Assembly: GCA_050633305.1 (NCBI GenBank)
Contig: JBOEGF010000043.1
Span: forward strand, 128,001-192,000
Length of the DNA stretch: 64,000 nt
Direction: 5' to 3'
Source: Nannocystales bacterium
Lineage (GTDB): Bacteria > Myxococcota_A > Polyangia > Nannocystales > Nannocystaceae
Shown here: positions 2 to 21,822 of the stretch, piece by piece
Position numbering within the stretch: position 1 is the stretch's first letter
Layout: each line of letters opens with the position of its first letter
Translations under genes and position numbers: made by a program
Notes under the pieces: generated by a model
Told to the model about the DNA's origin: nothing
The model's database searches: none
Seen by the model: the letters and a program-made list of their open reading frames with translations, nothing else

Positions 2-1633
2 TACGAGAACGACGCGGGCGTGTTCACCGACGTATCCAACACCGCGATCGACAGTTTCGAGGGCCGCATCCGCCAAGTCGCGATCGGCGACGTCGACGGC
101 GACGGTGACCTCGACATCTTCGCGCCCGACGGTCAGGGCGCAGGCAGTGCGTTCTTCATGAACATGGGGGACATGGTGTTTGCGGATGAGTACGCCGAGC
201 GGATGCCGGAAGCTCAGCCGAACGTCGGAGCCACGCGGATGGGTGACTTCGACAATGATGGAGACCTCGATATCTTCAGTGCCGACGGCTACACGTCGAA
301 CCCAGCCGTTTTCGGGCACATCTATCTCAACGACGGTCTCGGGAACTTCGACGAGGTCGACGGAGCCATCCCGGACGTCTTCACCGGGCAGGATCCAGAC
401 GACGTCGATCTGTTGGACGCCGACGGCGACTTCGTCATCGACATCCTGCTCAACGCCCACAACGGAGACAACAGCCTCTGGTTGGGCAACGGCGATGGAA
501 CGTTCAGCGATGCCAGCGATCAGTTTCCGCCGCAGAACAGCCAAGGTCCGAACTACCACTACAACCCCACCGCATGCGACGTCGATGGTGACGGTGACCT
601 CGATGCTTGGGTGGACAACATGGGGCCGAACTACACCGAGCAGTTGCTGATCAACGATGGATCAGGCGTCTACACGGATGAGACTGCTGATCGTGTGACC
701 GGGAACCAGGTGAACGGCGACGACAACGGTGTCGTTTGTGCCGACATCGACAACGACGGCGACTTCGATGCCGTCGTCATCGCGCTTGGGAGCCGAGAGC
801 GCTACCTACAGAACGATGGCAGCGGGAACTTCACGTTCGTGGATGGTGCGTTCGGGGGAGTGCCGGATGCGTCGCTGTGGGGCGAGTTTGGGGACTTGAA
901 CGGCGATGGTCGTTTTGACCTCGTGACCGGGCAGGGGGAGTTCGGTGACATCGAGGACCACGTCTACTTCGCGACCAATGGCCTCGCGGCTGATGACCGC
1001 GCTCCGTCGTTCCGTGCGATCGAGACGGGTTCGTTCGAGGAAGACAGCCCGATTGTGGTGCACGCTGCGATCGCGGATCGTTCCGTCACGGACAACGGCC
1101 CTCGTTTGTCGGCGATGGCCGCGACGCTTTCCGGTGACGGCGTCGACGAGGCGACGGTCGTGACGTACATGGGAGGGGATTTGTTCCGCGCAGAGTTTCC
1201 AACGCAGCCGGTCGGGTCCTACTCCGTTCAGATCTGCGCCACGGACATGGCGGGCAACGAGGGGTGCGAGATGACCCAGGTCGCAGTCGGAGGCGGTGGC
1301 GGAGAGTCCGATACGGACACCGACGGGGCGGATGACACCGGAGACGCTTCTGAGAGCGACACGGACGGGTCGTCCGACTCCGACTCCGACTCTGATTCCG
1401 ACTCCGACTCCGCGTCCGCGAGTGACTCGGACAGCGATAGCGGCCCAGGTTCGAGCGCGAGCGACTCGGCATCGGCGAGCGATACGAACGCCGCCACCGA
1501 CACCGACACCGACACGGACTCCGCGGGTGGCAACGGGGGTGGTGGAGGCGGCTGCACGACAGGTGGTCCCGCTCCGCTGAGCCTGCTGTTGCTCGGACCC
1601 GCGTTGCTCGGGCTGCGTCGTCGTCGCGAGTAA
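2..1633 (+). CDS. FG-GAP/VCBS-repeat surface protein with Ser/Asp-rich stalk and MYXO-CTERM-type C-terminal anchor (5' truncated by window edge)
   Basis: Frame open from base 2; repeated D(V/F/I)D(G/N)DGDLD motifs; S/D/T-rich linker; ends GGGCTTGGPAPLSLLLLGPALLGLRRRRE (Cys, hydrophobic helix, Arg cluster). Confidence 0.85.
   Translation, partial: YENDAGVFTDVSNTAIDSFEGRIRQVAIGDVDGDGDLDIFAPDGQGAGSAFFMNMGDMVFADEYAERMPEAQPNVGATRMGDFDNDGDLDIFSADGYTSNPAVFGHIYLNDGLGNFDEVDGAIPDVFTGQDPDDVDLLDADGDFVIDILLNAHNGDNSLWLGNGDGTFSDASDQFPPQNSQGPNYHYNPTACDVDGDGDLDAWVDNMGPNYTEQLLINDGSGVYTDETADRVTGNQVNGDDNGVVCADIDNDGDFDAVVIALGSRERYLQNDGSGNFTFVDGAFGGVPDASLWGEFGDLNGDGRFDLVTGQGEFGDIEDHVYFATNGLAADDRAPSFRAIETGSFEEDSPIVVHAAIADRSVTDNGPRLSAMAATLSGDGVDEATVVTYMGGDLFRAEFPTQPVGSYSVQICATDMAGNEGCEMTQVAVGGGGGESDTDTDGADDTGDASESDTDGSSDSDSDSDSDSDSASASDSDSDSGPGSSASDSASASDTNAATDTDTDTDSAGGNGGGGGGCTTGGPAPLSLLLLGPALLGLRRRRE
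1303..1520 (+). repeat. Low-complexity coding repeat (SD/TD dipeptides)
   Basis: Tandem tccgac and accgac hexamers encoding SDSDSD and TDTDTD. Confidence 0.8.
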
Positions 1634-2733: not shown

Positions 2734-3459
2734 CTACTTCTTCGCCGCGGCGTCGGGTTTCTTGCCGCTCTTGCCGGCGCCACACCCACCGCACTCGGTG
2801 TGGTCGTGCTTGTTCATGTTGCCGCAGTACTGGCACTTCCAGTCCGCGACGGCCTGCTTGGCGTCCTTTTCGGCCTTGGTCTTGTCGTCTTTGTCGGCCT
2901 TGGCCTTGCTGTCCTTCTTCGACTGCACGCCGCTGACCTTGTCGAGCGCGCTCTGGGCGGTCTCGAGATCTCCGAGGACCTTCTTCACGATCGCATCGGC
3001 GTCGTTGGGATTCTTGGCACCTTTCTTGAGGGCCTCTTCGGCCCGAGACAAGGCCTTCTCGGCATCCGCGGCCGCAACCTTCGCCCCCTCGCGAATCGAG
3101 GCGTCGGAGGCCTTGGCGGTGACCTCGACCCGGGCCTCGCGGAGCTTCTTGCTGACGGTCTCGACCTTGTCGAGTTCGCGCACGAAGCCCTTCATCAGGG
3201 CGCTGTTTGCCGCGGACAGCTTCTCGATGGCGGCATCGCCCTCGAGCGAGCCCGCGGCCTCATGAATCGGTTTCGCTTCATCGATCCGGGCCTGGAGCGC
3301 GGGTTTGAATCCGGGGTACTTCGCCTGCAAAGACTCGACCTTCTTCAGATTGCTCTTCCAGGCGGCGGTTTGGTTTTCCACCGTCTGTTTGCAGCCCCCG
3401 AAGAAGGCGAACAGGGTGAGCAACAAGAACGGGAGCAGGACAGTCCGGACTGCGGTCAC
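2734..3459 (-). CDS. Lipoprotein with Ala/Lys-rich helical body and C-terminal RanBP2-type zinc finger
   Basis: Signal ending FFGG-C; WKCQYCGNMNKHDHTECGGC; start GTG 3459 (TATGCT 7 nt upstream) or ATG 3471. Confidence 0.8.
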   Translation of the reverse strand: MTAVRTVLLPFLLLTLFAFFGGCKQTVENQTAAWKSNLKKVESLQAKYPGFKPALQARIDEAKPIHEAAGSLEGDAAIEKLSAANSALMKGFVRELDKVETVSKKLREARVEVTAKASDASIREGAKVAAADAEKALSRAEEALKKGAKNPNDADAIVKKVLGDLETAQSALDKVSGVQSKKDSKAKADKDDKTKAEKDAKQAVADWKCQYCGNMNKHDHTECGGCGAGKSGKKPDAAAKK

Positions 3460-3539
3460 GGCGGCAAGCATACTGCGCGCGGCGGCTGCTCGTCATCCGG
3501 CCCTTTCCCCGGACGCGTAGGTGTGCGACCAACACGTAG

Positions 3540-6467
3540 ATGGTGCACGCGGTCGCGAGACGCTTCGCCTGTGAGGAACTCGTCCGCTTGCGGCGGGCGG
3601 ACGAACAGCGTCGGTACCTGGCCTCGCAGCGAAGCGCACGGATCGATCCCAACCCGCATCAGATCGAGGCGGTCATCTTCGCGCTTCAGAGGATCCCCAA
3701 GGGCGGTTGCATCCTTGCCGACGAGGTGGGGTTGGGGAAGACGATCGAGGCTGGCCTCACGCTGTCCCAGCTGCTGGCCGAGGGAGCCTCACGCATCCTG
3801 TTGCTGACACCCAAACCACTGCTTGGGCAATGGAGAGACGAACTGCTCGCGTTGTTCGGCATCACCGCTCGAGAGGGAGCCTCGGAGGAGACCGGCTTTG
3901 AGGGTCCAGGGGTGTTCATCGCTGGTCGGGAGTACGCGGGCTCCGAGGTGGGAGCCGCCGCGATCGGGGGGAGCGGTAAGTTCGACCTGTGCGTCATCGA
4001 TGAGGCGCATGAGATCTTCGCGGGGATCTATCGGCGCTACGATCGACAAGGCGGTCTTCGAGATGGGTCGCGCTACGCCCGAACCGCGGCCCGGGTGAAG
4101 CACGCGTTGCTCGGCACGCCCATGTTGCTGCTCACCGCGACACCCATCCAAAACACGCTCACCGAGATGTGGGGCCTGGTTCAATACGTCGAACCGACCG
4201 GCACCCTGCTGGGGGACCTGGGCACGTTTCGCTCGGTGTTTTGCGATGGGGATGATCGCCGGATTCGGCCCGGGCAGGATGACGAGCTGAAACGACGGCT
4301 CGCAACGGTCTGCCAGCGAACGCTACGCCGCCAAGCGCAGACGTTCATGGCCAAAGCGTTCACCCAGCGGACGGCGCGGTTGTTCGAGTACTCGATGTCT
4401 CCGGACGAGGCGCAGCTGTATGAGGACGTGACGCAGTATCTGCTCGATCCCAAGACGCTCGCGTTTCGTGGAACCCACCGCCGACTATTGCTGATCGGCT
4501 TTCATCGCCGCATGGGGAGCTCGGTGGTGGCGCTCGCCGACTCGCTTCAGGCGGTGGCCGATCGTTTGCGGCGGAAGCTCGAGGGGAGCGGCGACACGCT
4601 TCGGCTCTTCGAAGCCGATCTCGACGATGAGGATGCACCAGCGGCCCCCCGCGGTGATGACGAGGAGGTTCCCGAGCATCCGGAGCCCGAGCTCGTCGCC
4701 GAGATGAAGCGGGTTCAGGGGCTCGCGGACCTCGCCAGGAGTCTGCCGGTCGACAGTAAGGCGGAGCAGCTGAGGGTCGCGGTGGAACGCGCGCTGACTC
4801 GGTCCGACGGCAGTGGAAAGGTGGTCATCTTCACCGAAGCCCTCTCCACGCAGACGTACATCAAGCGGGTGCTGGTGGAGGGACGCATCGTCGCACCCGA
4901 TGCCGTGACGATGTTCCGAGGGCAGAACACCGGGCCCGAGGTGGCCGTCGCCCTCCAGCGGTGGGAGGGCGAGGTCGGCTCGCGAATGCCCAAGGACGCC
5001 CAGCCATCGCGTTCGGTGGCGGTCCGGCTGGCCCTGGTCCACGAGTTTGCGACGAAGACCGCGGTGTTCATTGCGACCGAAGCTGGGGCGAAAGGGCTGA
5101 ACCTGCAGTTCTGTGACACGGTGATCAACTACGACCTTCCGTGGAACCCGCAGCGCATCGAGCAGCGAATCGGTCGGTGCCATCGCTATGGCCAAACGCG
5201 CGACGTCACCGTCATCAACTTCATCAACCGCGACAACGAAGCGCAGCGGCTCACCTTCGACATCCTCTCCCGCAAGCTCGAGCTGTTTGGCACCGTTTTG
5301 GATGCCTCGGACGCGGTCCTTCATCAGGCGGTGGCGCCGACATCGACCGCGTTGGTCGGTGCGCTTGCCAGCGACTTCGAGGCCCAACTGGCGGACGTCT
5401 ACGACAAGGCTCGCTCGGCCGAAGAAATCGCCGCAGGCATGGCGGAGCTCGGAGCGCGCGTCGGAGATGCCAAGGACGACTATGAGCAGACACACGCACG
5501 AACGGCGGGGCTGATCGAGACCCGGTTCGACGCGACGGTGCGGGCGGCGTTCAAGGACATCGAAGAGGAACTCCCCGAGGCATTGGCGGCCTTGGATGCA
5601 GAGCTGGAGGGCGTCCTCGTCCGGTTCCTGGACGCGGTTGGGATCCCGTACACGACCGATCGGGATGACGCTGGTCTGACGGTTGAGGTCTCCGCGCATC
5701 CGAAGCTTCCTCCTGCACTGCGGGAGGGCGTCCGGATCCGCGTGGGCGACGGGGTGCCCGAGCAGGGGGAGCCGTTGCACGTCGGCCATGCCCTCATCCG
5801 AGCAGCGCTCGAGGAATCACGGGCAGCCACTGTCGGGCGTCAACGGGTGTCGATCCGTGCTTCGAACCTCGAGGGGGATGTGGCGGCAAAACGAGGGACG
5901 ACGGGCCGGATCAGTGTGGTGCGGATGCAGGCGCTTGGCTTCGAACCGGTGACCGAGCTGCTGCCCGTGGTTGTGCTCGACGACGGGCCGCAGCCGTTCA
6001 TGGGTGCTCGGGCGCGTGGCTGGGTGCTCGCGGCGATCGCCGAGGCAGACCCCCACGTCGGCCTTTCGCTCGACACGCTCGAGGATGCGGCTCAGGAAGC
6101 GATCTTCGTTGCGGGGGGAGATCTCGAGGCTCGGGAGCACCTGCGCTTCGAAGAGACGATGGCGCAGATTGAGCGCTCGGTCGACGACCGTGTCTTGGCA
6201 CTGCGCCGGATCCGTCACGAGGTCCAGGGTCGTCACGCCGAGGCTCTGGGTCGTCGCGACGCGGCAGTGGGGCCAGGCCCACGGACCCGGGCCGAGCAGG
6301 AGCTGGCCGCGATCGAAACGGAACTCGAGGGGCTCGACGCACAGGCCCTGCGCCTGCTCACACGCGACGACGACGAGTACCGGTCGTGGCGATCACGCGC
6401 CTACGTCCGGCGTTACACTCCGCCCTCCTACGAACGCATCCTCGATGTGGAGTTCGTGCTCGTATGA
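3540..6467 (+). CDS. SNF2-family (RapA-like) SF2 helicase/ATPase
   Basis: PNPHQ, ADEVGLGKT (I), DEAH (II), TATPIQN (III), TEAGAKGLNLQ (V), QRIGRCHRYGQ (VI); helical C-terminus. Confidence 0.95.
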   Translation: MVHAVARRFACEELVRLRRADEQRRYLASQRSARIDPNPHQIEAVIFALQRIPKGGCILADEVGLGKTIEAGLTLSQLLAEGASRILLLTPKPLLGQWRDELLALFGITAREGASEETGFEGPGVFIAGREYAGSEVGAAAIGGSGKFDLCVIDEAHEIFAGIYRRYDRQGGLRDGSRYARTAARVKHALLGTPMLLLTATPIQNTLTEMWGLVQYVEPTGTLLGDLGTFRSVFCDGDDRRIRPGQDDELKRRLATVCQRTLRRQAQTFMAKAFTQRTARLFEYSMSPDEAQLYEDVTQYLLDPKTLAFRGTHRRLLLIGFHRRMGSSVVALADSLQAVADRLRRKLEGSGDTLRLFEADLDDEDAPAAPRGDDEEVPEHPEPELVAEMKRVQGLADLARSLPVDSKAEQLRVAVERALTRSDGSGKVVIFTEALSTQTYIKRVLVEGRIVAPDAVTMFRGQNTGPEVAVALQRWEGEVGSRMPKDAQPSRSVAVRLALVHEFATKTAVFIATEAGAKGLNLQFCDTVINYDLPWNPQRIEQRIGRCHRYGQTRDVTVINFINRDNEAQRLTFDILSRKLELFGTVLDASDAVLHQAVAPTSTALVGALASDFEAQLADVYDKARSAEEIAAGMAELGARVGDAKDDYEQTHARTAGLIETRFDATVRAAFKDIEEELPEALAALDAELEGVLVRFLDAVGIPYTTDRDDAGLTVEVSAHPKLPPALREGVRIRVGDGVPEQGEPLHVGHALIRAALEESRAATVGRQRVSIRASNLEGDVAAKRGTTGRISVVRMQALGFEPVTELLPVVVLDDGPQPFMGARARGWVLAAIAEADPHVGLSLDTLEDAAQEAIFVAGGDLEAREHLRFEETMAQIERSVDDRVLALRRIRHEVQGRHAEALGRRDAAVGPGPRTRAEQELAAIETELEGLDAQALRLLTRDDDEYRSWRSRAYVRRYTPPSYERILDVEFVLV

Positions 6468-7624
6468 GCCAAGGTGATCCCGACGTGGCGCTCAAGCTCC
6501 TGCATACCGCCGACTGGCACCTGGGAATGCGCTTCCCCAGCTTCTCTGAGGAGCATCAACGAACTCTGATGCGGGCGCGGATGGACGTGCTCGATAGCGT
6601 GTTTGGGGCGGCCGAATCCGCGGGAGTCGACGCTGTCTTGTGCGCGGGCGACCTGTTCGATGATCCGCTTCCCGCGGACCCATGGTGGCAGGGCTTGCTC
6701 GAGCGACTCCACGCTCGGGACTGGTCCGGGCGCCCGGTGTTCTTGTTGCCCGGCAACCACGACCCGCTGACAAACAAGAGCGTGTGGTCCGAAGACCATC
6801 CGTTCCGGCGCGGTCTGCCCGATGGGGTCCACGTCGTCGACCGGGATGACTTCGAGGCTCCACTGTCCGACTGTGGGGTGCTGCTCGCGGCACCGTGTCG
6901 CACCCGGGCCGGCCAGAGCGGCCTGTGGAAGAACCTGCCGCGCCGCGCAGCGGATGACGAGCGCATCCGCGTGGGCATGATTCACGGGCAGACCACCGAT
7001 ATCGAGGGGTTCCAAAACACCTTCCCGATTCCGGCCGAGGCCGCTGAAGATCGCGGTCTCGACTACCTCGCGATTGGCGACACGCACGCGTTTCGCGAGG
7101 TGCCTCCGGGGGCTGCGGTGCCGACGGTCTACCCGAGCGCACCCGAGCCCACGAAGTTCGGGGAGCAGGATGCCGGCTATGTGGCGCTGGTGTTTTTCCC
7201 GCGGGATGGGAGGCGGGCGCTGCTTCGTAAGGAGCGAGTCGGACGTTGGCGTTGGGTCGAGCGGACGGTCAAGTCCGTGGCCGATCTTCGGGCCCTCGCA
7301 GCCGAGGGCGACCTGGCCACCAAGGTGATGCGGCTTCACGTGCAACTCGATGCGACACCGCCGGAGTACGAAGCCGTCGAGGCTTTGCTGCGGACGCTGG
7401 GGGGCACCGATGCGACACATGGCCGGGTTGGGGTGCTTCAGGTCGATCGCTCGCGGCTGCGGCTGCGGACCGACGACCTCGAGGCGGCCTTCGATGGACT
7501 GCCAGATGAACTCGGGCAGGTCGTCTCGCGGCTTCAGGCTCGGGCGGAGTCCGGCGGAGAGGACGCGGAAGCAGCGAAGCGGGCACTGTACCACCTGTAT
7601 CGCTCGGTCCGGGGGAACGACTGA
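6464..7624 (+). CDS. Mre11/SbcD/YhaO-type metallophosphoesterase nuclease
   Basis: HTADWHLG, AGDLFD, PGNHD, IHG, GDTH, PEP motifs; ATGA overlap with the helicase stop. Confidence 0.92.
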   Translation: MSQGDPDVALKLLHTADWHLGMRFPSFSEEHQRTLMRARMDVLDSVFGAAESAGVDAVLCAGDLFDDPLPADPWWQGLLERLHARDWSGRPVFLLPGNHDPLTNKSVWSEDHPFRRGLPDGVHVVDRDDFEAPLSDCGVLLAAPCRTRAGQSGLWKNLPRRAADDERIRVGMIHGQTTDIEGFQNTFPIPAEAAEDRGLDYLAIGDTHAFREVPPGAAVPTVYPSAPEPTKFGEQDAGYVALVFFPRDGRRALLRKERVGRWRWVERTVKSVADLRALAAEGDLATKVMRLHVQLDATPPEYEAVEALLRTLGGTDATHGRVGVLQVDRSRLRLRTDDLEAAFDGLPDELGQVVSRLQARAESGGEDAEAAKRALYHLYRSVRGND

Positions 7625-10600
7625 TGCGTTTGCGAACCCTCGAGGTCTCGGACTTCGGCGCGGTGGAGCAGGCCAAGGTGTCCTTTGAGGATGGGCTCAA
7701 CGTCCTGCACGGGCCCAACGACCTGGGTAAGTCGACACTCGCGGCTGCAATCCGGGCCGCGCTCCTGTTGCAACATGGGTCGAGTGCCGCGCGGCCGTAC
7801 ATCCCGTGGGGAACGACCCGTAAGCCCACCGTCACGCTCGTCTTGGAGATCAAGGGGAGGTGGTGGCGGGTGCACAAAGCCTTCGGCACCAGCTCGGGGG
7901 GGAAGTCCGTGTTGGAGTGGTCGAACGACGGCATGACCTACAGCCTCGAAGAGGAGGGCCGCGGTGTCGACGGCCGCCTGCGCGAGCTGTTGGAGTGGGG
8001 CCTCGCCGCGCCGGGTGGACGGGGTGGATCGCACGGGTTTCCCAAGTCCTTCCTTGCGACGGTGTTGTTGGGCGAGCAGGCGGTGCCGTATCGGTTGCTG
8101 GAGCAGAGCCTCGACAGCGATGCGGAGGACAGCGGCAAGGCGCGACTCGTCGAGGCGCTGCAGGCGATGGCGACTGACCCGCTGTACCAGCAGGTGCTCG
8201 AGCATGCCCAGACTCGGGTGGACGAGGCGTTCACCGCGAAGGGCAAGCGAAGCACCCGGAAAGGGAGTCCATTCGAACGCGTCGGCACCGAGATCAAGCA
8301 GCGGCGAGAGGCGAGCGAAGAGCTGATCTCCGCGGTCGCCGAGAGCGACGCCGTTGTATCGAGGTTGGCCGAGCTTTCGGTGCGTCGAGACACGGCGCTG
8401 GCCGAGCGCGCCCGGATCGCGCAGACGGTCGAGGGCATCGAGGTGGCGCTCGAGGAGGTCCGCATTCGTGTGGGCTTGCAGGCCGAGGTGGATGCTGCGC
8501 GTGGAGCCTTGGCCGAGATCGAGCGTAACGGACAGGAGATTGCGCGTCTGCATGGCGAGCTTCAGTCCGCGAAGGCAGCCGTGCCCAAGGCCGAGGCCGC
8601 GTTGGAAGCGGAGCGGGGCGCGGTGCGAGACGCGGAGGTGGAGTTCGAGCGGGCACGCGCAGCCGCGCAGGCGCTGAGTTCGGGTGAGGACCCGGAGCTT
8701 CGGGCCCAAGCCCAAGCTCGGGCGGAGACGCTGCGGGAGCTGGATGCCGAAGCGGCGACGTTGCAAGCCCGTGAGACGCAGCTGATGCAGTGGCGAGCGG
8801 CGTGTGAGGAGCGGGACCAGACGCTTGCGAAGCAGCAGAAGGCGCTCGATGTGCACACCGCGGCTGTGGAGGCCCAAGCCAAGGCAAGCGCTGCCGCGTC
8901 GGAAGCGGCGGCGGTGCACCGCCGCCGTGCGGACGCCTTGCTGTGGATGCGTGCCGAGGGCCTTCGGCGACGGGTGGAAGGGCTGGTGGGGCGCGAGGCC
9001 GCGGCGAACCAAGCTCGCGAAGAGGCGGACGCCAAACGTGCCGAGGCGGCCGCTCTCGCTGCCAAGCTGGGGACGGACTTTCCCGACAGCGAGACCCGCG
9101 AAACGATGGAAGCCTCGTGGCGAGCGCTGCAGATGCGAGAGGCGGCCCTGCGTGGTGGGGTCCGGGTGGCGTTGGCGTTGTCGCAAGACATCAAGGCGAC
9201 GACGGATGGTGCCGGCCCGAATGCGGTGGCCGCGGATGCCACCATCGATGCGGAACGCGAAGTCGTGCTCGAACTCGGCGCGCTGGGGGAGATGACGGTT
9301 CGCCCGGGTGATCCGAGCGCTCACGCAGCGCTGGAAGAGGCGAGGTCCGCGTGGAGTGTGCACGCGGCACGGCTCGACGCGTTGGGCATTGCATCGGTCG
9401 ATGCGCTCCGGGTGGCCGCCACCGCTCGCGCAGAGGTGCAGCGCGAGCGAGATGCCCGAGCCCAAGAGGCTCAGATGCTGGAGGCGCGCGCGACTCCGGT
9501 GGAGGCCTCCGAGTTGCAGTCGGCGAAGGCCGACCTCGAAGCGGCCGAGCGCGGCCTCGAGAACGTGGAGGATTCGGGATGCAAGGCCGAGGCTGAGGCG
9601 CACGGGGACGACCTCGATGCAGCCGTACGCGAGTCTGAGGCGGATGCCGAGCGTCTGGCTCGGCTCGCAGTGGTCGCTGCAGCCACCGCATCGGAGGCGC
9701 AGACGGAGCGACGCTTGGCCGAAGAGCGGGCCGACGCCGCATCGAAGCTCGAGGCCGCCGCGCGGCTCGATGGAGACGATCCCGTGCGCGCTGCCGAGGC
9801 ACTCCGCACTGCCCTCGATGGCATCGCGCAGCGGCGGTCTGAACTCGATGCGCAGGCGAAGGCGGAGGTCGACGGGATGGCGCAACGGACCGAGGCCGCC
9901 CAGCGGGCGGTGACCGAGGCGGAGTCCGCCCGCCTGGGCGCCACCGAACGCGAAGCGGCCCTCCGACAAACGCTCGACCAGGCTCGAGCGACGCAGACGG
10001 CCGCCGATGCGGCGTTGGCGGTGCGACGAGAGCAGGCGCAACACCACGACGCATTTGCGGCGGCCGAACGAGTCGCGCAAGCGCAGGATGCCCTGGCAGG
10101 GGCTCCGGAGCCGCAGGTGGACACCTCGCAGGAGACGGTCGACGCAGCGCGGACAGCGTTGGTGGTCGCCGAGGAGGCGCTCGAAGACGCGGAGCGGGCC
10201 GTACGCCAGCAGGAAGGTGCGCTACAGCAGGTTGGCGGTCAGGTCGTGCGCGAGAGGTCCCAGATGGCCCGGGAGGCCCTCGAGGATGCGCGGCGTCAGG
10301 AGGCCGAGATCGAGCTCGACTACGACGGGTGGCGGCTGCTGCTCAGCACCCTTCGCGAGGTCGAGAACGAAACGGGCGCCCATCTTGGGCGTTCCCTGGG
10401 CACCGAGGTCGCGACCCGCATGGAGTCCCTCTCCCAGGGCCGCTATCGGGGGGCATCTCTGGGCGCGGACCTGGAGACCGAAGGGGTGGTGACCGAGCAG
10501 GGCGTGCAAGCCCTCGACCGGTTCTCCGAGGGGGTCAAAGAGCAGGTCGCGACGTTGCTGCGGGTGAGCGTCGCCGAGCATCTCGGGACGACGCTGGTGC

Positions 10601-10788
10601 TCGATGACCACCTCGCGCAAACCGACCCCGAGCGCTCGGAGTGGTTTCGCAGACTGCTGCAGGAGAGCGCGGAGTCGATTCAGGTGGTGGTGTTGACGTG
10701 CCGGCCCGAGGACTACGCGGCGGCGGGCGCAGGGGAGGGTGCGGCGACCCATGTCGTGGACCTCTCAACCAGCGTCGTGCGGCGCTAG
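7624..10788 (+). CDS. Rad50/SbcC/YhaN-type ABC ATPase with long coiled coil
   Basis: N-terminal Walker [10 protein letters not shown]; long Ala/Glu/Arg coiled coil; C-terminal [28 protein letters not shown] overlap with the nuclease stop. Confidence 0.92.
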
Positions 10789-11223: not shown

Positions 11224-13053
11224 TCACGAGCGCGAGCTGATCTCTGCGACGCACAGTGCCCGAGCGGCGCGGCGGTCCGCGCTGACACCCTTCTTCATCT
11301 CGCCACTTGGCAGCGCGAACGTGGTGACGTTGCCGCGCCAACGGGCACTGGTCCAGTAGGTCCCGCGGGGACCCCTGCCGCTTTGCGAGATCCGTTTGAC
11401 GACTCCGGGGAAGACCAGCTTCCACCCTGAGAATCCCAGGTGTCCCGTCCTCCCGAGGGCGTCGCAGAAACTTCGCGCGTTGCCGTGGTCGCTCCGCTTG
11501 CCGCGACGGACCGAGAAAACGTAGCCGTTGCCCAGGTCGACGACGCCAGGAGGGAGTGCTTCGGGTTCGGGGGGCGGCGATGGCTTGGGCACCGGGGGCG
11601 GCGCTTCGAAGGCGCCCTCTGCAGGCGGTGGAGGCACGTCGGTGGCCGGGGGTGCTGTTCTTGTCCCCACGTCCGGCGTCGGTACATCTTCCAGGATGAC
11701 CACGTCGGCCTCCGGGTTCCCGACGTCGAGTTTGGGGACGACGGCGGCTGCTTCGACGGTCGGCGAGGCTGCTGGGGGAGCGGCCCGGGGGGTTGCCTCG
11801 GGAGATTGTGGCGCGGCCGGAACGGGCTCAGCCGCAGGCGGGGTGTCGGACGGCCACAGCGCCACGGCGACCGCCAATGCGACCGCGGCCAGGCCCCCCA
11901 CGAGCCAGAGTCGACGGGACGGGGAAGTTGATGCGGCGAACGGTTCTGTGGGCCGCCTCTCGATCGCGCTCTGGGCCACAGGCGGCTCTTCGGCGGGGAC
12001 ATCGCTTGTCTCGTCGGTGGGCAGGGGAATCGCGGGGCTGACCCTGGGCAGGCTTGGAGCGGTCGGACCTTCGTCGTCGGGGTCGTCGGCGTCCGGGTCA
12101 AGTTCGAGGGCCTGGCTGAGCGCTTCCTGCAACTGCGCAACGCTCCCGTAGCGGTCGTCGATGTCCTTCGACAGACATCGGTTGACAACGTCCACCAACG
12201 CCTGCGGTACGCCGGGCTTGAGCGTTTGAATTGGGACCGGATCCTCGTGGCTGACGAGCAGCAACGTTGCGGCCACAGTTGCCCCCTTGAAGGCGTGTTT
12301 CCCGGTGAGCGCCCGGAAGATGATGGCACCCACCGCCCACAGGTCGGTGCGGATCTCGGCTTGGTCGGCGCCCTTGAACTGCTCGGGCGCCATGTACTCG
12401 GGCGTCCCGAGCAGCGCGCCGTGTTCGGTGGTGATCTCCGAGCTTCCGTCGGTGAACTTCGCCACCCCGAAGTCCATCAGTTTGACGATCGGCGGCCCAA
12501 CCTTGGGCTCGTGCAGGTAGACGTTCTCCGGCTTGAGATCGCGGTGCACGATGCCTTCGGCGTGGGCGGCCTGCAGCCCGAGCAGTGCCTGTTGCACGAG
12601 GTCGACGGTTTCCTCGGGCGATAACGAACCGCGTTCGCGGATCAGCTGCGCGAGGTTTTTCCCCTTCAGCCGCTCCATCACGATGTAGGGCCCGATGGGA
12701 CCTACACCGAAGTCCAGGATCTCGCAGACGTGGGGGTGCGCGATGCGGCCGGCGGCCTTCGCTTCGCTACGAAAGCGCGCGACGAGGTCCTCGTTCTTGA
12801 GGACCTCCGGACGAATGACCTTGATGGCGACCTCTCGATCGACGGCGGTGTTGATGGCCAGCCACACCGAAGCCATCCCGCCCTTGCCCAGCTTGCGAAC
12901 GAACCGAAACTTCCCTGACAGCACCCGCCCCAGCAGCGGGAGAGCCATGTCGGTCTCCGGGCACTTGAGACGATCAGGCGGATGCGACCCAGCGCAGTAC
13001 GGGCAAGCCGGCAGGTCGTCGGATCCCGCCGCAGGTGGGGCGTGCTCGTCCAA
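11224..13053 (-). CDS. Hanks-type Ser/Thr protein kinase with TM helix and DUF1566-like C-terminal domain
   Basis: LGKGGMASV, VAIK, HRDLKPEN, DFG, GTPEYMAPE, DLWAVG; TM helix; Pro-rich linker; start uncertain (13053, 13062 or 12948). Confidence 0.93.
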   Translation of the reverse strand: MDEHAPPAAGSDDLPACPYCAGSHPPDRLKCPETDMALPLLGRVLSGKFRFVRKLGKGGMASVWLAINTAVDREVAIKVIRPEVLKNEDLVARFRSEAKAAGRIAHPHVCEILDFGVGPIGPYIVMERLKGKNLAQLIRERGSLSPEETVDLVQQALLGLQAAHAEGIVHRDLKPENVYLHEPKVGPPIVKLMDFGVAKFTDGSSEITTEHGALLGTPEYMAPEQFKGADQAEIRTDLWAVGAIIFRALTGKHAFKGATVAATLLLVSHEDPVPIQTLKPGVPQALVDVVNRCLSKDIDDRYGSVAQLQEALSQALELDPDADDPDDEGPTAPSLPRVSPAIPLPTDETSDVPAEEPPVAQSAIERRPTEPFAASTSPSRRLWLVGGLAAVALAVAVALWPSDTPPAAEPVPAAPQSPEATPRAAPPAASPTVEAAAVVPKLDVGNPEADVVILEDVPTPDVGTRTAPPATDVPPPPAEGAFEAPPPVPKPSPPPEPEALPPGVVDLGNGYVFSVRRGKRSDHGNARSFCDALGRTGHLGFSGWKLVFPGVVKRISQSGRGPRGTYWTSARWRGNVTTFALPSGEMKKGVSADRRAARALCVAEISSRS

Positions 13054-13139
13054 CGTACGCACAGTAACACCGCGGCCCGAACGCAGGTCCTGCCTCAAAG
13101 CCGGCTGAAGCTCGAAGGCTGGCGGCCGATGACGGGACT

Positions 13140-13991
13140 ATGGCGAAGGCGATTCGACCCTGTTCGGTCCTCGCGGTGGGCGCGATGCTCACGCTGGGCT
13201 GCGCTCCCCAGGTGGAGACCGTGACCGCGGATGCGGCGCAGGTCCGGGCCGCGGCTGTGCAATCCGAACTCGACGAAGCCGTGTTCGCCTATCACGAGGG
13301 CGGAGATCTCGATGCGCTGAAGTCGTGGGTGGACGCACACCCTGATCACCCGGAGTTGGACACCTGGCGTGAGGTGGTCGCGCTCCGGACGTACGAGTCG
13401 GTCGTGATCGGGGATCCCTGGACCACGGAGGCGGCCAAGGATGGGGAGGACGTCGCCGTGGCGCCGTTGCCCGAGCCCTCGACCGCCGCGCTACTCGCCC
13501 TGGTCGAGCACTACCCCGGCACGCTCGGGGCTGAGACGGCACAGGCGCTGCTCGAGACGCATGGACTTCAGCGGCTGAGCGTTCCGACGTTCAACGACTC
13601 GGTCGTCGCCTTCCTCGAGGGGCGCGACGACTGGGTTCGAGACGACCTTGGTCGAAACCTGATGCCCAACGTCGATCTCGACGCGTTTCGGGAGCGCCAC
13701 GAAACCAAGCTTCGGACCCGATTCGGGGAGCGCCTCGCCGAAGACGCATGCGTCGACTCGATGGGGTACTGCACCTGGTACGTGAAGGCCTACCCCGAGG
13801 ACCCCCGGGTCTCGGAGCTCCAGGTGGCGATGAAAGACGAGTGGTACCGCCGCGGACATCCGCGCTGGCGCGGGTCCAAGTTCGCGAACTGTGCGTACCG
13901 GTGTGCGAAGACCTGCCGGACCGACGCGGAGCCGCTGGACGACGCCTGTTATGCGCCGTGCTTCGCTGGCTGTGAAGCGGCTGCAGGCTGA
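13140..13991 (+). CDS. Hypothetical lipoprotein with Cys-rich C-terminus
   Basis: Lipobox-like LTLG-C; CAYRCAKTC...CYAPCFAGC. Confidence 0.75.
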   Translation: MAKAIRPCSVLAVGAMLTLGCAPQVETVTADAAQVRAAAVQSELDEAVFAYHEGGDLDALKSWVDAHPDHPELDTWREVVALRTYESVVIGDPWTTEAAKDGEDVAVAPLPEPSTAALLALVEHYPGTLGAETAQALLETHGLQRLSVPTFNDSVVAFLEGRDDWVRDDLGRNLMPNVDLDAFRERHETKLRTRFGERLAEDACVDSMGYCTWYVKAYPEDPRVSELQVAMKDEWYRRGHPRWRGSKFANCAYRCAKTCRTDAEPLDDACYAPCFAGCEAAAG

Positions 13992-15424
13992 GGCTTCGCT
14001 GCGTCTTTGTTGGCTCTGCGTCCGGCGAGAAGCTCTTGGAATCGAAGATCGACCCCGATCGTGAGCAGGTCGTAGCCGGTCTTGAACGCGCCGGCGTTGC
14101 CGGGCACGCCGGAGAGTCCGTCGCAGCCTGAGGGGCACGGGCGAAGCGGGCGCTGGCCGAAGACCTTGCCGAACTCTTCACTGACCGTGCGGTCTTCTTG
14201 GAAGACGTGCATGTAGCCGACGGTGAGGTACGCGCCCTTGGCCCCCGCCGTGAAGCCGCCGCCGACCCCGAACCGCCGGAAGCTGGGAAAGTCGATGCTG
14301 GAGAAGTTTTCCGGGGCAGCGGCAGTCTCGAAGAACGCGCCGGTTCGCAAGGTGAGGTAGGGCGGCAGGGGGTGCACATCTCCGCCCAGGCGAACAGACA
14401 CGGTGTCCTTCCAGTTCTTTGCGAGGGTGAGCTCCTGAAGCTCCTGGCCATTGAGCTGACCTTGCACGTCGAGGTCGAAGCTCTTGAGCATCGACCAGGA
14501 CTCGTAGACCGCGTCGAGCTCGATGTCGAACCACTCTCTCGTGCCCGTGTCGTGGATGTAGCGCAGGCCGCCGCGAACGATCACCGGCAAGGTCAGATCC
14601 ATGCTGACCTTGATCTCCTCGGTCACCAGGGTTTCTTTGTCGACCGATACGCCGCCCTTGGGCTTGAAGTAGACGGGGACGAAGCGGCTGGAGACCCCGA
14701 GTTCGAGCCGCTGGTGAGGCCGATACCAGGCTCCGATCTGCGCGGTGGCAGCCGTACGATCTTTGAGTTCGATGCTGGTGACGAGCTGTGTGCTCTCGGG
14801 GTCGGCGACTGGGCTGAGGCCCGTGGTCACGACCGAGTCCGACAGGACGGCGTAGTCCAGCTTCATGAGGTCGGCGTATTGCACCACCGCGCCGATGCCG
14901 AAGACGTCGCGCCACTTCCACGCGGCGCCCACGGTGTAGTACGCGAGCAGCACGTCCAGCTCGGTCATCATGAAGGCCTGGGGCCCGTAGCTGGGGTAGC
15001 TCTGCTTGCCGAATCCGTTGGGCCCATAGACGCCTGCGGCGAACGTCCAGTTGTCGAGCCCAAAGTCGCTGGTCACCACCAACGTCCCGAGGATCGGGAA
15101 CAAGTTGTTCTTTGCGGTGACGGGGTCGAAGGTCGTGCCCGCGTCATCGCCCCAGGCCTCGCTGAGCGTGGCCCGCGAGAACTGGGTGTGCTGCCACATC
15201 AACCCGTGGTTGTACATGACGGTGGTCCCCCGCATCTTGGCGAGCGAGCCGGGGTTGTAGTGGATGGCAGTGCCATCCTCCACGCCCACCACGTTGGCCG
15301 CACCGCGGCCGAGCGCACGGGCACCCATGTCGGGGACCTCGAACCCTCCGGCGCGTGCCTCCTGGGCGAGCCCGAGGGTAGCAACAGACGCAAGGACCCA
15401 CGGGGCCAGCCATCGGCGCAACAT
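13949..15424 (-). CDS. FadL/OmpP1 (Toluene_X) family outer-membrane transporter
   Basis: Signal peptide ARA|GGFEV, ARALGRG, AIHYNPG; beta-strand pattern; WKDT motif. Confidence 0.85.
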   Translation of the reverse strand: MLRRWLAPWVLASVATLGLAQEARAGGFEVPDMGARALGRGAANVVGVEDGTAIHYNPGSLAKMRGTTVMYNHGLMWQHTQFSRATLSEAWGDDAGTTFDPVTAKNNLFPILGTLVVTSDFGLDNWTFAAGVYGPNGFGKQSYPSYGPQAFMMTELDVLLAYYTVGAAWKWRDVFGIGAVVQYADLMKLDYAVLSDSVVTTGLSPVADPESTQLVTSIELKDRTAATAQIGAWYRPHQRLELGVSSRFVPVYFKPKGGVSVDKETLVTEEIKVSMDLTLPVIVRGGLRYIHDTGTREWFDIELDAVYESWSMLKSFDLDVQGQLNGQELQELTLAKNWKDTVSVRLGGDVHPLPPYLTLRTGAFFETAAAPENFSSIDFPSFRRFGVGGGFTAGAKGAYLTVGYMHVFQEDRTVSEEFGKVFGQRPLRPCPSGCDGLSGVPGNAGAFKTGYDLLTIGVDLRFQELLAGRRANKDAAKPQPAAASQPAKHGA

Positions 15425-15432
15425 CGTCGAGC

Positions 15433-15463
15433 AACCTACCACGCCCGCGCTGCGTGGTAGATT
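15433..15463. promoter_or_regulatory. Symmetric divergent promoter or operator
   Basis: CTACCACGC-N7-GCGTGGTAG inverted repeat; each arm supplies a TG-n-TAG(G/A)TT extended -10 facing one of the two divergent ATGs. Confidence 0.55.
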
Positions 15464-15472
15464 CACACAACG

Positions 15473-16465
15473 ATGATCGACAGAGCCTTCTTGGCAGGCG
15501 TGTCCGTAGCCTGGACCCTCAGCGCTGTCGCGTGCACCAACGGCGAGGGCAACGAGCCCAACGTTTTGCCCGACCCAACGGGGGGGAGCTCGAGCACGGG
15601 CACGAGCACCGTCGACCCCCCTACGACCACGCAGAACCCAACCTTGCCGGTGACCGGCTCCGGATCGGGCTCGTCGGGTTCCGCCGGCGGTGACCCCACT
15701 CCGGTGACCTATCGGTTCGACTGCATCGACATCCAGACGATCGGCGATGCCGACAGCACGGTCATTCAGGCGCAGCTGCTGGAGAACACGTGGGGATCGG
15801 ACATCGACCAACTCAAGCTCAACATCATGCTGGAGGCGGCTTCGCGGGACGCCGAGGCCGGGGAAGCGCTGTTGGGCATTCGGTCCGGTGTTGGTGCTGA
15901 GGCTTCGGGATTGTGCTCACAGGCCGAGACGATCAGCGACCTGATCCCAGTCGCGTTCGCTGCCGACGACACCCGCTGGGGTCCGGCATCGGCGGTCGGA
16001 GAGTGCAGCGTGCCCGCGACCGGCACGGACGGAAGCTCCTACACGATGGAGCTGCCCCCGGAACGCGTGGTCTACATTTACTCCGAGGACGACGACGTGA
16101 CGCCGTTCAACTGCACGCCGGACGCCGCTGTGCCGGACGCGGTACCGATCCGAGCGGTGCAAGCCGAGGTCTCGACCGACGCGAGTGAGGGCACCGTCTG
16201 GGGGACGCTCAACGGGTGTCTGTTGGAATCCGAAGCTCAGAGTCTGTGCTCGTGTTTGGGGTCGTGTACGGGCGAGGGGCCCGACGACCTGCAGACCGAG
16301 GGCGAATGCGCGGGCTGCCCAACGGGGGGGACGCCGCTGGCGGTTCTCCTGGGCGGTGTCAACACGTCCGAGAACTGTACGTCGATCATGGGGGCGCCCG
16401 CGTTCGACTTGCGTCTGGGCTTCAGTGGCGTGGCTCTCCCCCACGTGCCGACCGCGTGCGGCTGA
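15473..16465 (+). CDS. Cys-rich hypothetical lipoprotein
   Basis: SAVA-C lipobox, T/S/G-rich linker, many Cys. Confidence 0.8.
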   Translation: MIDRAFLAGVSVAWTLSAVACTNGEGNEPNVLPDPTGGSSSTGTSTVDPPTTTQNPTLPVTGSGSGSSGSAGGDPTPVTYRFDCIDIQTIGDADSTVIQAQLLENTWGSDIDQLKLNIMLEAASRDAEAGEALLGIRSGVGAEASGLCSQAETISDLIPVAFAADDTRWGPASAVGECSVPATGTDGSSYTMELPPERVVYIYSEDDDVTPFNCTPDAAVPDAVPIRAVQAEVSTDASEGTVWGTLNGCLLESEAQSLCSCLGSCTGEGPDDLQTEGECAGCPTGGTPLAVLLGGVNTSENCTSIMGAPAFDLRLGFSGVALPHVPTACG

Positions 16466-16481
16466 CTTTCCCACGGGAACG

Positions 16482-18131
16482 ATGACGCGCAGGTCTCGTA
16501 CGCGGCGGATCCTGGCGCTTGTCCTGCTCGGGCCGGCTCTGTTGTTCCTCTTGGCGGGTGCCTACATCATGGCGATGGGGCAGCTCGAGGGGGAGACGCG
16601 CTCCATGTCCGACGCCGTTCAATGGGCCGCCGAGACGATCACGACGACCGGGTACGGCCGCGACAACCACTGGACGCACCCGCTGATGATCGCGTTCGTT
16701 GTGGTCACGCAGTTCGTCGGGTTGGCGCTCACCTTCGTCGTGTTCTCGTTGGTCGTCGTGCCCTTCTTCGAAGAGCGGTTCGAGGCGCGACTCCCCCGAA
16801 CCGTGCCCAAGACGCGTGACTACGTCCTCGTGTTTCGCTACGGCCCCGCCGTGCTCCCACTGCTGGAGGAACTCGGCCGTGCCTCGGTGCCGACCGTGGT
16901 GCTCGAACGGGATGAGGCCGTCGCGAGGCGCCTGTTCGACCGTGGACAAGCGATCGTTTACGCGCCCGACGAGGAAGACGAACTCGATGTCACGCTGTTC
17001 GAGCGAGCCCGCGCGGTGGTGCTGGCCGGGTCGGACCAGCAGAACGCCGAAATGCTCCTCAACGCCCGGCACCTGGGTTACGAAGGTGAGTTGCTCGCCC
17101 TCGCCGACCATCCGCTTCACCGACGACCCATGATGTTGGCAGGGGCGGACGCGGTCTACACCCCGCTGCACATCCTCGCGGCTGCGATGGCGTCCCTGGC
17201 ACGCGACCGGGTGCGACCTCGTATGGAGGGCTTGGGCGGGGTCGGAGCCCTACTGCGGACCATCGAGGTGCGGGTCGCCGAGGGCAGCTCGCTCGCAGGA
17301 TCGACCCTGGCCAAATCACAGGTGCGGACCCAGACCGGTGCGACGATCGTTGGACGGTGGGTCGACGGTGCGTTTCGGCCGTTTGCCCGACCGACCGAAC
17401 CGATCGACCCCGGCACGATTCTGATGGCGGTGGGCAGCGCCGAGGCAGTCGAAGCCCTGGGAAAACTCGCGACGCCGCTGGGCCGCCGCGGACCGTTTCT
17501 CATCGCTGGCGCAGGAGAGGTGGGGCGCAAGGTCGGCGAGCTGCTGCGAGACGCCGGAGAGTCGGTGGTCGTGTTCGACAAGAACGCTCGGGATGGCTGC
17601 GACCAGGTTGGGGACGTGCTGGACCGGGATGTCCTGGTGAAGCTTAACGTCCTCGACGCGGCATGCGTCATCTTGGCGCTCAGTGACGACAGCACGACGC
17701 TTTTCGCCGCGTCGGTCGTACGAGATTGCGCTCCAGACGTTCCGATCGTGGCTCGGGTGCAACGCAGCAACAGCGTCGCTCGCATCCACCGAGCAGGGGC
17801 CGACTTTGCACTCTCGCTGGGGCAGGTCGCCGCCGAACTCCTCGCTCAGAAGATGCTCGGTGACGCGTGGATCAGCCTCGATGCACGCGTCAAGCTCCAC
17901 GAGGTGGGCAGCACCGGCTTGGAAGGACGAAGCCCGCTGCAGGCCCAAGTGGGAGCGTCGACGGGGTGTTCGATCGTCGCGGTCCGGCGCGACGAAGAGG
18001 TGACCGTGTCTTTCCCCGACGGGTTTCGGATCGAGGCCGGCGACCGGTTGTTCCTCGCCGCACCCCAAGAGGGCCTCACGCGTTTTCGCGAGCAGTTCCC
18101 GCTGGCGGAGCGCGAGGCCAAGCGGGCCTGA
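16482..18131 (+). CDS. TrkA-domain potassium channel protein (two RCK N/C pairs)
   Basis: TTTGYG selectivity filter between two TM helices; GAGEVG Rossmann motif; TrkA-C signatures. Confidence 0.9.
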   Translation: MTRRSRTRRILALVLLGPALLFLLAGAYIMAMGQLEGETRSMSDAVQWAAETITTTGYGRDNHWTHPLMIAFVVVTQFVGLALTFVVFSLVVVPFFEERFEARLPRTVPKTRDYVLVFRYGPAVLPLLEELGRASVPTVVLERDEAVARRLFDRGQAIVYAPDEEDELDVTLFERARAVVLAGSDQQNAEMLLNARHLGYEGELLALADHPLHRRPMMLAGADAVYTPLHILAAAMASLARDRVRPRMEGLGGVGALLRTIEVRVAEGSSLAGSTLAKSQVRTQTGATIVGRWVDGAFRPFARPTEPIDPGTILMAVGSAEAVEALGKLATPLGRRGPFLIAGAGEVGRKVGELLRDAGESVVVFDKNARDGCDQVGDVLDRDVLVKLNVLDAACVILALSDDSTTLFAASVVRDCAPDVPIVARVQRSNSVARIHRAGADFALSLGQVAAELLAQKMLGDAWISLDARVKLHEVGSTGLEGRSPLQAQVGASTGCSIVAVRRDEEVTVSFPDGFRIEAGDRLFLAAPQEGLTRFREQFPLAEREAKRA

Positions 18132-18161: not shown

Positions 18162-18878
18162 CTACCGCTCCAGCAGTGACTTCAGCAGCTCCGCCGACAG
18201 TCCACCGCTCGCGCCGAGGTCCATGAGTCGGCGCAGAGCGTCTTCTCGACGCGAGGTCTGGCTGGGCAGGGTCGCCAGCATCTTGATCACCCACTGGCGG
18301 CGGCGTTTGGGGATGCCGCGGAGCCGACGCCCGACCTCCTCGGCCCGCTTCGGAATCGCGGTTGCCCCTACGAGTTCTTCGCGATGGGCGTCGGTGGTCA
18401 GCACGGTCTGCGTGAACTCCCGGATGACCTTGCGAGCGTCGGAATCCAGCGGCGCATCGCCGGCCAAGACCACACACGCGGCATCGGTGAGCAGCTCTGC
18501 GAGGTTCGTCTGTCCTTCGGTCCAGGCTTCCCGCCAGAACTCGAGTTGGACACCTTCAACGCCCAGCTGGGCCGCGATGCGCTCCAGAGCGTCGCGCTCT
18601 GCGTCGGTCCGCTCGCCATCTGCGACGGCCACGGTCCATGCGTTCTCGAGGATCTCTCGGTGCGCGGACTCGGCGGGCGGTGGCAGCTGGAGGAGCATCT
18701 CCTCGAGGCGAGCGCGGTCCGAGATCGTGCTCAGCCACGCGCTGTACTCCTCCGCGTTGGCCTCGCCCTCCACCATGGCGAGCAGGAGGTCGCACTCCTG
18801 CCCGTCAAGGACTCCGTCGGCATGTGCCATCACGCCGCACGCGACGACCGTCCACTGACTCTCGAGGCTCAGTGCCAT
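18162..18878 (-). CDS. TerB-like domain protein
   Basis: MAHADGVLDGQE and AVADGERTDAE repeats; TACCAT 5 nt before the ATG. Confidence 0.8.
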   Translation of the reverse strand: MALSLESQWTVVACGVMAHADGVLDGQECDLLLAMVEGEANAEEYSAWLSTISDRARLEEMLLQLPPPAESAHREILENAWTVAVADGERTDAERDALERIAAQLGVEGVQLEFWREAWTEGQTNLAELLTDAACVVLAGDAPLDSDARKVIREFTQTVLTTDAHREELVGATAIPKRAEEVGRRLRGIPKRRRQWVIKMLATLPSQTSRREDALRRLMDLGASGGLSAELLKSLLER

Positions 18879-18921
18879 GGGGCATGGTATCGCGGACGCC
18901 GGTCGTGGGAAGCTCTGCTCG

Positions 18922-19794
18922 ATGCAGGCGCCGCGCATGTGGCTGGGTTGCCCGATCTGGGGCCGCAAGGACTGGGTCGGCGAGCTGCTGGCACCGGGCA
19001 CCAAGTCGTCCGAGTTCCTCCGTGGGTACGCGGAGGTGTTCGACGCGGTCGAGGGGAACACGACCTTCTACGCGACCCCGCCTGAGGACATCGTCCGACG
19101 CTGGGTCGATGCCACCGCAGAGTCGTTTCGCTTCTGCTTCAAACTACCCAAGACGGTGACGCATGAGCGAGGGCTGATCGCCGCCGCGGGGCTGACCGAA
19201 CGATTTCTCGAGCGGATGCGCCCCCTGGGTCCCCGGTTGGGCCCGTTCATGATCCAGCTTCCCCCCAGCTTCGGGCCTCCGCGCCTCTCGGTCCTACACG
19301 CGTTCCTGCGCGGCCTCCCACGTGATCTTCGCTTCACCTTGGAGGTTCGCCACCGTGGGTTCTTCTCCGAAACTCCCGCGGAGAAGCGTCTGACTGCGAT
19401 GCTGATCGAACACGACATCGAGCGGGTGGTCCTGGACACCAAGGCGATCTACGCCGACATCCCGGTCGATGAGGAGCTTCGTGTCGCGCGAGAGAAGAAG
19501 CCCCGCATCCCGATCCCGACGGTCGTCGAGGGGAAGAACCCGGTGTTGCGTCTCATCGTGCCGCCGAGCCCCCAGGTGGCCGTACCGCGTATCGACGCCT
19601 GGATCTCCCGCGTCGCGGCGTGGCTCGCCCAGGGACGCTCTCCGTACGTGTTCCTGCATTGCCCCGACGACTTTCACGCGCCTCGACTGGCACGTACGTT
19701 TCACGACCGCCTCGCGGAGCGCTTGGGGACGGAGTCGATGGCACCGTGGCCCGCCGAGCGCGCCCCCGCGAAGGCCCAGACGAGTCTGTTCTAG
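18922..19794 (+). CDS. DUF72 (YecE-like) protein
   Basis: LGCPIW, VEGNTTFYATP, FRFCFKLPK, QLPPSF, EVRH, FLHCPD. Confidence 0.9.
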   Translation: MQAPRMWLGCPIWGRKDWVGELLAPGTKSSEFLRGYAEVFDAVEGNTTFYATPPEDIVRRWVDATAESFRFCFKLPKTVTHERGLIAAAGLTERFLERMRPLGPRLGPFMIQLPPSFGPPRLSVLHAFLRGLPRDLRFTLEVRHRGFFSETPAEKRLTAMLIEHDIERVVLDTKAIYADIPVDEELRVAREKKPRIPIPTVVEGKNPVLRLIVPPSPQVAVPRIDAWISRVAAWLAQGRSPYVFLHCPDDFHAPRLARTFHDRLAERLGTESMAPWPAERAPAKAQTSLF

Positions 19795-21730: not shown

Positions 21731-21822
21731 CGGTTCGCCCTTGTTGTCAATGGTCACTCGTCTGCAAGTGCGAGGCATGGGCCACCAGCCTGTCCATGTG
21801 ACCCCGCCTCTCCCTCACTGCG

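Follow-up and report, generated by a model that had tools for sequence, protein, structure and literature searches.

A 64,000-nucleotide stretch of a Nannocystales genome (NCBI: GCA_050633305.1, contig JBOEGF010000043.1, positions 128,001–192,000), referred to here as the window, encodes a three-gene cassette consisting of an SNF2-family motor, an Mre11/SbcD-like nuclease, and a Rad50/SbcC-like ATPase. The three genes are passed on together, and their linkage lies far beyond chance. On balance, and with some reserve, we favor a reading in which the trio is a methylation-independent defense cassette that recognizes DNA structure or ends instead of sequence. A sequence-only reading of the window had pointed to a coupled operon with recognizable catalytic motifs and no methyltransferase nearby. 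The three genes and both overlaps lie where it placed them, the motifs of all three proteins were located, and a search of the window's contig (C43) for three Pfam families of DNA methyltransferases gave no match. The features of the cassette are as follows.

3540–6467 (+): SNF2-family ATPase gene, an open reading frame (ORF) of 975 amino acids (aa)
6464–6467 (+): ATGA stop/start overlap, SNF2 gene to nuclease gene
6464–7624 (+): Mre11/SbcD/SbcF-like metallophosphoesterase nuclease gene, ORF of 386 aa
7622–7626 (+): TGATG stop/start overlap, nuclease gene to ATPase gene
7624–10788 (+): Rad50/SbcC/SbcE-like ABC ATPase gene, ORF of 1054 aa
9160–9300 (+): apex domain of the ATPase (residues 513–559), six short β-strands at the position of the Rad50 hook, from DSSP of the model and alignment

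The helicase, as the sequence-only reading would have it, accompanies the pair in other genomes. An SNF2 gene lies directly upstream of the clade nuclease in 64 of 67 evaluable metagenome loci (75 nuclease-clade loci in total, eight left out for flanks shorter than 150 bp; one of the 64 positives, L161, is a deleted remnant), and none was found within ~9 kb of 24 more distant nuclease–ATPase pairs. Scanning genomes with the SNF2 protein yielded 80 loci, 14 of them at 41% identity or higher; both partners are present in 10 of these, two end inside the SNF2 gene, and two are partner-less SNF2 fragments (L013, L072). The distant SNF2 loci L015 and L024 carry the nuclease–ATPase pair too. Where intact loci were measured, the gap between nuclease and ATPase genes is −4 to +1 bp in 20 of 25. 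The clade nuclease occurs in 7 of 401 genomes in an even sample of the host phylum and in 8 of 401 in an even sample of Acidobacteriota, with the trio complete at all seven loci checked in each sample. The trio also occurs in Spirochaetota and Melainabacteria, and its linkage holds at ~50% identity across phyla. A clade of 35 (support 99) unites the trio nucleases, with L015 and L024 not firmly placed (support 67). The SNF2 and nuclease trees contain the same subclades, and pairwise distances are correlated among the three proteins (Spearman 0.56–0.74; 0 of 2000 permutations), although shared ancestry alone would give such a correlation; these patterns speak for co-inheritance, not contact. 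Neither viruses nor plasmids emerged as the vehicle: no clade member appeared among 54 viral loci (best match 39% over 91 residues), and the best plasmid match reached ~31%, the two records examined being SNF2-less pairs.

In L004 and L304 the SNF2 gene is separated from the nuclease gene by inserted genes, and in L305 the insertion falls between nuclease and ATPase, a point against a single machine. The three genes might accordingly be former neighbors that are carried together while the motor and the pair each act alone. Three of the 67 clade nucleases have no SNF2 gene, the SNF2 gene is broken beside an intact pair in L081 and L161, and similar pairs exist without SNF2. We nevertheless judge this very unlikely: linkage persists across phyla at the identity given above, the protein distances correlate (with the caveat already stated), and all three genes are still intact and in the same order in the operons that inserts have split. 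The inserts (L004:12974–15572, L304:10460–15398, L305:10463–18389), which are unrelated to the trio and leave all three of its genes in place, include a HepT-MNT toxin–antitoxin pair in L304 and an unannotated 1909-aa ORF in L305.

The first gene of the cassette connects it to restriction. Its product matches Pfam SNF2-rel_dom and Helicase_C, contains G64–T68 (GLGKT), D154–H157 (DEAH), T199–T201, and motif VI (Q542–Y550), and is of the RapA/DrmD-like type without an N-terminal Tudor region. The AlphaFold2 model, with a mean predicted local distance difference test (pLDDT) of 80, suggests a motor core at approximately residues 16–630, a helical linker, two α/β domains, and a C-terminal helical hairpin; it superimposes on RapA (4s20_K) over residues 1–972 (703 aligned, Z 16.4, root-mean-square deviation 9.6). 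The top NCBIfam match is the short-form DrmD model DISARM_DrmD_b (NF038318), at 390.5 bits against a cut-off of 950, and NF038317 scores 206.8 against 610. In a quick tree search, the trio SNF2s fall on one side of a branch comprising 39 rows (Shimodaira–Hasegawa-like approximate likelihood ratio test, SH-aLRT, 93; two long rows included), whose core of 37 rows has SH-aLRT 100; 60 other rows lie on the other side. Among the sister SNF2s adjacent to this branch, 56 of 64 loci carry a Mod/Res cluster within the next five ORFs, with the type III identity confirmed by Pfam on six loci and by PADLOC on two. Trio and restriction-linked SNF2s are 28–38% identical, and both are the first gene of their operon. 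By its place in the tree, then, the trio motor comes from an SNF2 family that otherwise stands at the head of type III restriction operons. The simplest reading is that the motor left a restriction operon, with the nuclease–ATPase pair replacing methylase and endonuclease; since the tree lacks a reliable root, this direction stays a reading.

The sister SNF2s (L016–L080) head operons of the form SNF2-[cargo]-Mod-Res. The cargo slot holds a PHP-ATPase, SIR2, AIPR, AAA_21 with DUF4276, AlbA-2, or DUF6119, and looks like an insertion hotspot. No role for SNF2 in such operons was found in the main-text passages that represent the literature throughout this work.

The nuclease matches Pfam Metallophos and carries all five metal motifs, with conserved residues D17, H19, D63, G97–D100 (GNHD, including N98 and H99), H174, D206, and H208. 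The fifth motif reads GDTH, as in 32 of 37 trio members, versus GDWH in 21 of 24 SNF2-less relatives. Its TIGR00619 (sbcD) score of 55.4 bits falls below the cut-off of 77.65, and the best hit of a PDB profile search, Mre11/SbcD, spans only the first ~100 positions. The C-terminus is a helical segment that presumably resembles a Rad50-binding domain.

The ATPase displays G30–S37, Q152, a signature at S968–Q974, and Walker B at L993–D995. It matches Pfam AAA_27 and AAA_23 N-terminally, with AAA_27 at 28.8 bits (cut-off 22) over residues 1–46 only. The AlphaFold2 model (pLDDT 78, predicted template modeling score 0.41) consists of a split ABC head and a long coiled coil. Foldseek matched it to SMC and Rad50 structures, the whole-model search being dominated by the heads. 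Walker B reads DD, and the switch position is Arg in the window copy and in 27 of 35 trio members (His in four); DD with Arg also occurs in some SNF2-less relatives. No CxxC zinc hook was present in any of 14 aligned ATPases, an SbcE-like trait for which the sequence-only reading, with its "Rad50/YhaN-like" ATPase, had left room. The modeled β apex is probably the dimerization site in its stead; searching the ESM Atlas with it returned only unnamed clusters, at 0.95. The window apex has no hydrophobic peak. One ATPase subclade (L143, L159, L163, L167, L312) has one or two strongly hydrophobic apex segments, which by sequence could be a membrane anchor, and the ATPases of L159 and L163 are ~1785 aa long.

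These parts suggest how a defense cassette might work. Mre11-Rad50 works by having its ATPase grip DNA at ends or hairpins and switch on the nuclease. By analogy, the ATPase dimer of the cassette would clamp duplex DNA wherever it meets a free end or a hairpin and license the nuclease; the motor, judging from SNF2 biology, would track along the duplex and either clear shielding proteins or feed the nuclease. The targets, which would be degraded, would be linear phage genomes, replication intermediates, or incoming plasmid DNA. A circular chromosome would need no methylase because it has no ends, and sensing of structure would thus explain why a methylase is absent. In some lineages, including the host genus, the cassette has settled at a fixed chromosomal site and may also serve break processing. 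Our preference for defense over repair, the two functions offered by the sequence-only reading, draws, among other points, on the motor family heading type III restriction operons, on the rare and patchy occurrence of the trio, and on copies of the trio lying beside varied defense systems.

Those systems include Zorya I (L132), Gabija (L141, L165, L181), type 2 BREX (L270), Avs2 (L081), Cmr/Csm6 (L005), type I restriction–modification (L015), ISP restriction–modification (L008), and GmrSD (L009, L164). A helicase–REase gene lies near the trio in eight loci, and relaxases, an integrase, and resolvases in L008, L142, L309, and L311. Shango was ruled out as the identity of the L270 neighbors, which PADLOC assigned to type 2 BREX. 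A second trio copy in the host genome (C36, ~78,400–85,760; L081:8411–15764, − strand) is 46–59% identical to the first and adjoins Avs2 (PADLOC 862 bits); its SNF2 gene is split by a frameshift, through decay or assembly error. In L008 (1957–8960) and L142 (146–7011), on relaxase-bearing elements, a unit of a ~540-aa unknown protein, a 245-aa OmpA-like protein, and a 1520-aa helicase–REase resembles Zorya, although nothing matched Zorya models at 1e-30. Defense settings are not confined to the trio: in L274 (8001–17080), an SNF2-less pair on a Sphingomonas plasmid lies between AbiE and a VWA/PP2C cluster.

Several observations weigh against the defense reading, beginning with the island enrichment that the sequence-only reading had proposed to check, which is weak overall. 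Counting a locus as positive when a defense or toxin–antitoxin gene lay within the fetched flank, we found 25 positives among 56 trio loci and five among 23 SNF2-less pairs (Fisher p = 0.075, not significant). Genes were called by a codon-bias picker, and we labeled the neighbors ourselves on the basis of Pfam and PADLOC matches; L003 and L159 count as negative and three toxin–antitoxin-only loci as positive, L312 has no flank, and L262 went unscanned. Thresholds varied between scans, for six controls the scan took in only the larger ORFs, and the loci are not independent. Most of the signal is due to one tight subclade, in which 11 of 15 loci have a defense neighbor and near-identical cassettes sit beside differing systems (L181 placed by profile score); outside it the counts are 11 of 35 versus 3 of 17 in an earlier, smaller control set (p = 0.34). 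The window copy has no defense gene among 17 neighbors scanned, and its synteny is kept in all three same-genus genomes checked. Its GC content at third codon positions is native (0.78–0.81 for the trio, 0.78–0.86 for neighboring genes), so it bears no sign of recent acquisition. Three host-family genera have the clade nuclease at core-like frequency (in 6 of 7, 11 of 11, and 5 of 6 of their genomes), and in three Acidobacteriota genomes (L313–L315) the trio sits between the glutamyl- and glutaminyl-tRNA synthetase genes. Canonical sbcD does not exceed its cut-off in 13 of 19 trio genomes. Finally, the closest characterized pair, Bacillus subtilis SbcF-SbcE (YhaO-YhaN), is hookless and acts in break repair, and deletion of SbcE sensitizes cells to breaks, according to passages of PMC2811018.

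Most of these points are what one would expect of a housekeeping repair module, in which an SbcEF-like pair would have recruited SNF2 to clear proteins such as stalled RNA polymerase or covalent adducts off breaks or hairpins ahead of resection, parallel to RecBCD, and the presence in defense islands would be passive. Two further observations fit it. The modeled motor resembles RapA over its full length, and differences from a same-genus-like copy (L114) fall mainly at third codon positions (first/second/third: SNF2, 126/79/456; nuclease, 38/28/180; ATPase, 276/239/578), a purifying pattern. We regard this alternative as possible but doubtful. The motor apparently has its ancestry among type III restriction operons, the trio is found in ~2% of genomes of two phyla, and placement beside unrelated defense systems recurs. 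No common motif was seen by eye upstream of the trio at 30 loci. Within the host family, 24 of 72 genomes carry the clade nuclease (partners were checked in 14 of the 24), which is absent or only distant in 47 of 71 relatives (48 lack a match below 1e-80). The cassette has two lifestyles, carried as mobile cargo of islands in some places and fixed as a core locus in others, and so offers a case for studying domestication. Defense remains the likelier of the two proposed roles, although its enrichment falls short of significance overall and the window copy is core-like.

One form of the break-resection idea, with the trio standing in for RecBCD or AddAB, fails. The host assembly (completeness 92%) gave no match to RecB/AddB or RecC, but the end of recD forms the last bases of contig C24, which places recBCD in an assembly gap. 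A same-genus genome carries recCBD, and every one of the 23 other trio genomes in the family has RecC, so replacement was rejected. As to a separate canonical sbcCD, which the sequence-only reading had suggested looking for, none exceeds the TIGR00619/TIGR00618 cut-offs in the host assembly, and no sbcC match was obtained at the locus. Six of the 19 trio genomes have an sbcD over the cut-off; together with RecBCD in the 23 genomes, this marks the cassette as accessory. Across the host family, RecBCD and AddAB-like genes divide by genus, with four genera (34 genomes) lacking RecC and mostly having strong PF12705 matches. Such matches are missing from the trio genera. The trio is found only in RecC-bearing genera of the family, probably through shared ancestry.

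The remaining surroundings of the window copy are ordinary.

2–1633 (+): FG-GAP repeat protein with a Ser/Asp-rich stalk
3472–3539: 68-bp spacer between the SNF2 gene and a divergent gene (2734–3471), presumed promoter region

No sigma-70 consensus was found in the spacer. The divergent gene (− strand) encodes a probable lipoprotein of 245 aa with a C-terminal CxxC...CxxC and no Pfam match, and stays beside the trio within the genus. Other neighbors are a Ser/Thr kinase (11224–13098, −), a FadL-type porin (13949–15811, −), a TrkA-domain channel (16482–18131, +), an unannotated ORF that looks TerB-like (18162–19061), a DUF72 protein (18877–19794), and a DsbA-like protein (21011–21778).

If the cassette serves defense, a restriction-linked motor has shifted self/non-self discrimination from methylation to DNA structure, in a compact, clonable system for studying DrmD-type SNF2 motors. 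If it serves repair, bacteria have a relative of Mre11-Rad50 that comes with a dedicated SNF2 motor. More tentatively, the three proteins may form an SNF2-Mre11-Rad50 complex in which the motor swapped recognition of sequence or methylation for recognition of ends, the SbcD-type site was kept, and the motor supplies the movement that the degenerate ABC site no longer does. Such a complex would be an immune nuclease that acts directly and destroys DNA ends.

Set against known systems, the cassette is apparently unnamed and built from known parts: a pair of the SbcCD/SbcEF kind and a restriction-family SNF2. As the sequence-only reading had supposed, no PADLOC or NCBIfam model names the trio; the nuclease has no PADLOC 2.0 match, and the main-text passages covered yielded no description of the operon. 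Specifically, it is not described in the passages of 10.1101/2025.09.30.679545, PMC10586767, PMC11090510, and PMC2292703. It might still have been described under a different name, perhaps in a classification of conflict-system ABC ATPases from 2020 or in a supplementary table of candidate operons; PMC12839542 credits Krishnan et al. 2020 with having described ABC-ATPase conflict operons earlier. Given the negative results above, we think there is little chance of this.

In DISARM class 1, the motor would be a DrmD, whose cut-offs the trio SNF2 does not reach, accompanied by a methylase and DrmA/B/C; contig C43 has no methyltransferase of the three Pfam families, and the neighbors of 44 loci include no conserved fourth gene (the commonest family occurs in seven). 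The function of DrmD-type SNF2 in DISARM is listed as untested in a table of PMC11232893, and passages of PMC13069673 state that ietHAS requires a DrmD-like SNF2. Unlike type III restriction operons with SNF2, the window has no Mod and Res downstream; the nuclease–ATPase pair is there instead. BREX, Hma, Zorya, and Dpd gave only partial SNF2 matches, with cognate partners absent and unrelated neighbors in the window.

The trio resembles SbcCD/Mre11-Rad50 in its five nuclease metal motifs, split ABC head, long coiled coil, and nuclease-then-ATPase order, but it differs in scoring below the family cut-offs, lacking a zinc hook, having a DD Walker B and mostly Arg at the switch, and possessing a dedicated SNF2. 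In archaeal HerA-NurA-Mre11-Rad50, the Mre11-Rad50 pair is likewise co-encoded with a DNA motor; here that motor is SNF2 rather than a HerA ring, and there is no second nuclease and no conserved fourth gene. SbcEF, as described in PMC2811018, shares the nuclease gene before a hookless SMC-like ATPase and a central domain replacing the hook. It is followed by yhaM with no SNF2 before it, whereas the trio has SNF2 first. By its published description, the central domain of SbcE is hydrophobic; the apex of one trio subclade, hydrophobic and membrane-like, may correspond to it, and the window apex is a small β domain. Passages of 10.64898/2026.07.06.735840 report that an sbcD insertion relieved a conjugation barrier, and those of 10.1101/2025.09.15.676423 place no SbcCD in ARMADA.

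Eukaryotic Mre11-Rad50 co-operates with SNF2 remodelers. Lamassu (DdmABC), like the DrmD-like SNF2 of ietHAS, offers a precedent for defense: according to passages of PMC12663957, it arose from SbcCD and senses DNA ends, so that both systems would direct an SbcC-derived sensor against foreign DNA ends if the defense reading holds. The LmuB model matches the trio ATPase over residues 1–91 only (E = 1.5e-8), and the Lamassu set of LmuB with an LmuA effector and LmuC is not present. Lamassu no longer has the SbcD nuclease domain and sets off a separate effector, whereas the trio keeps the nuclease and adds a motor. If the proposed complex exists, break repair would have given rise to immunity along another path than that of Lamassu, and bacteria would possess, in three genes, a counterpart of eukaryotic Mre11-Rad50 acting with SNF2 remodelers.

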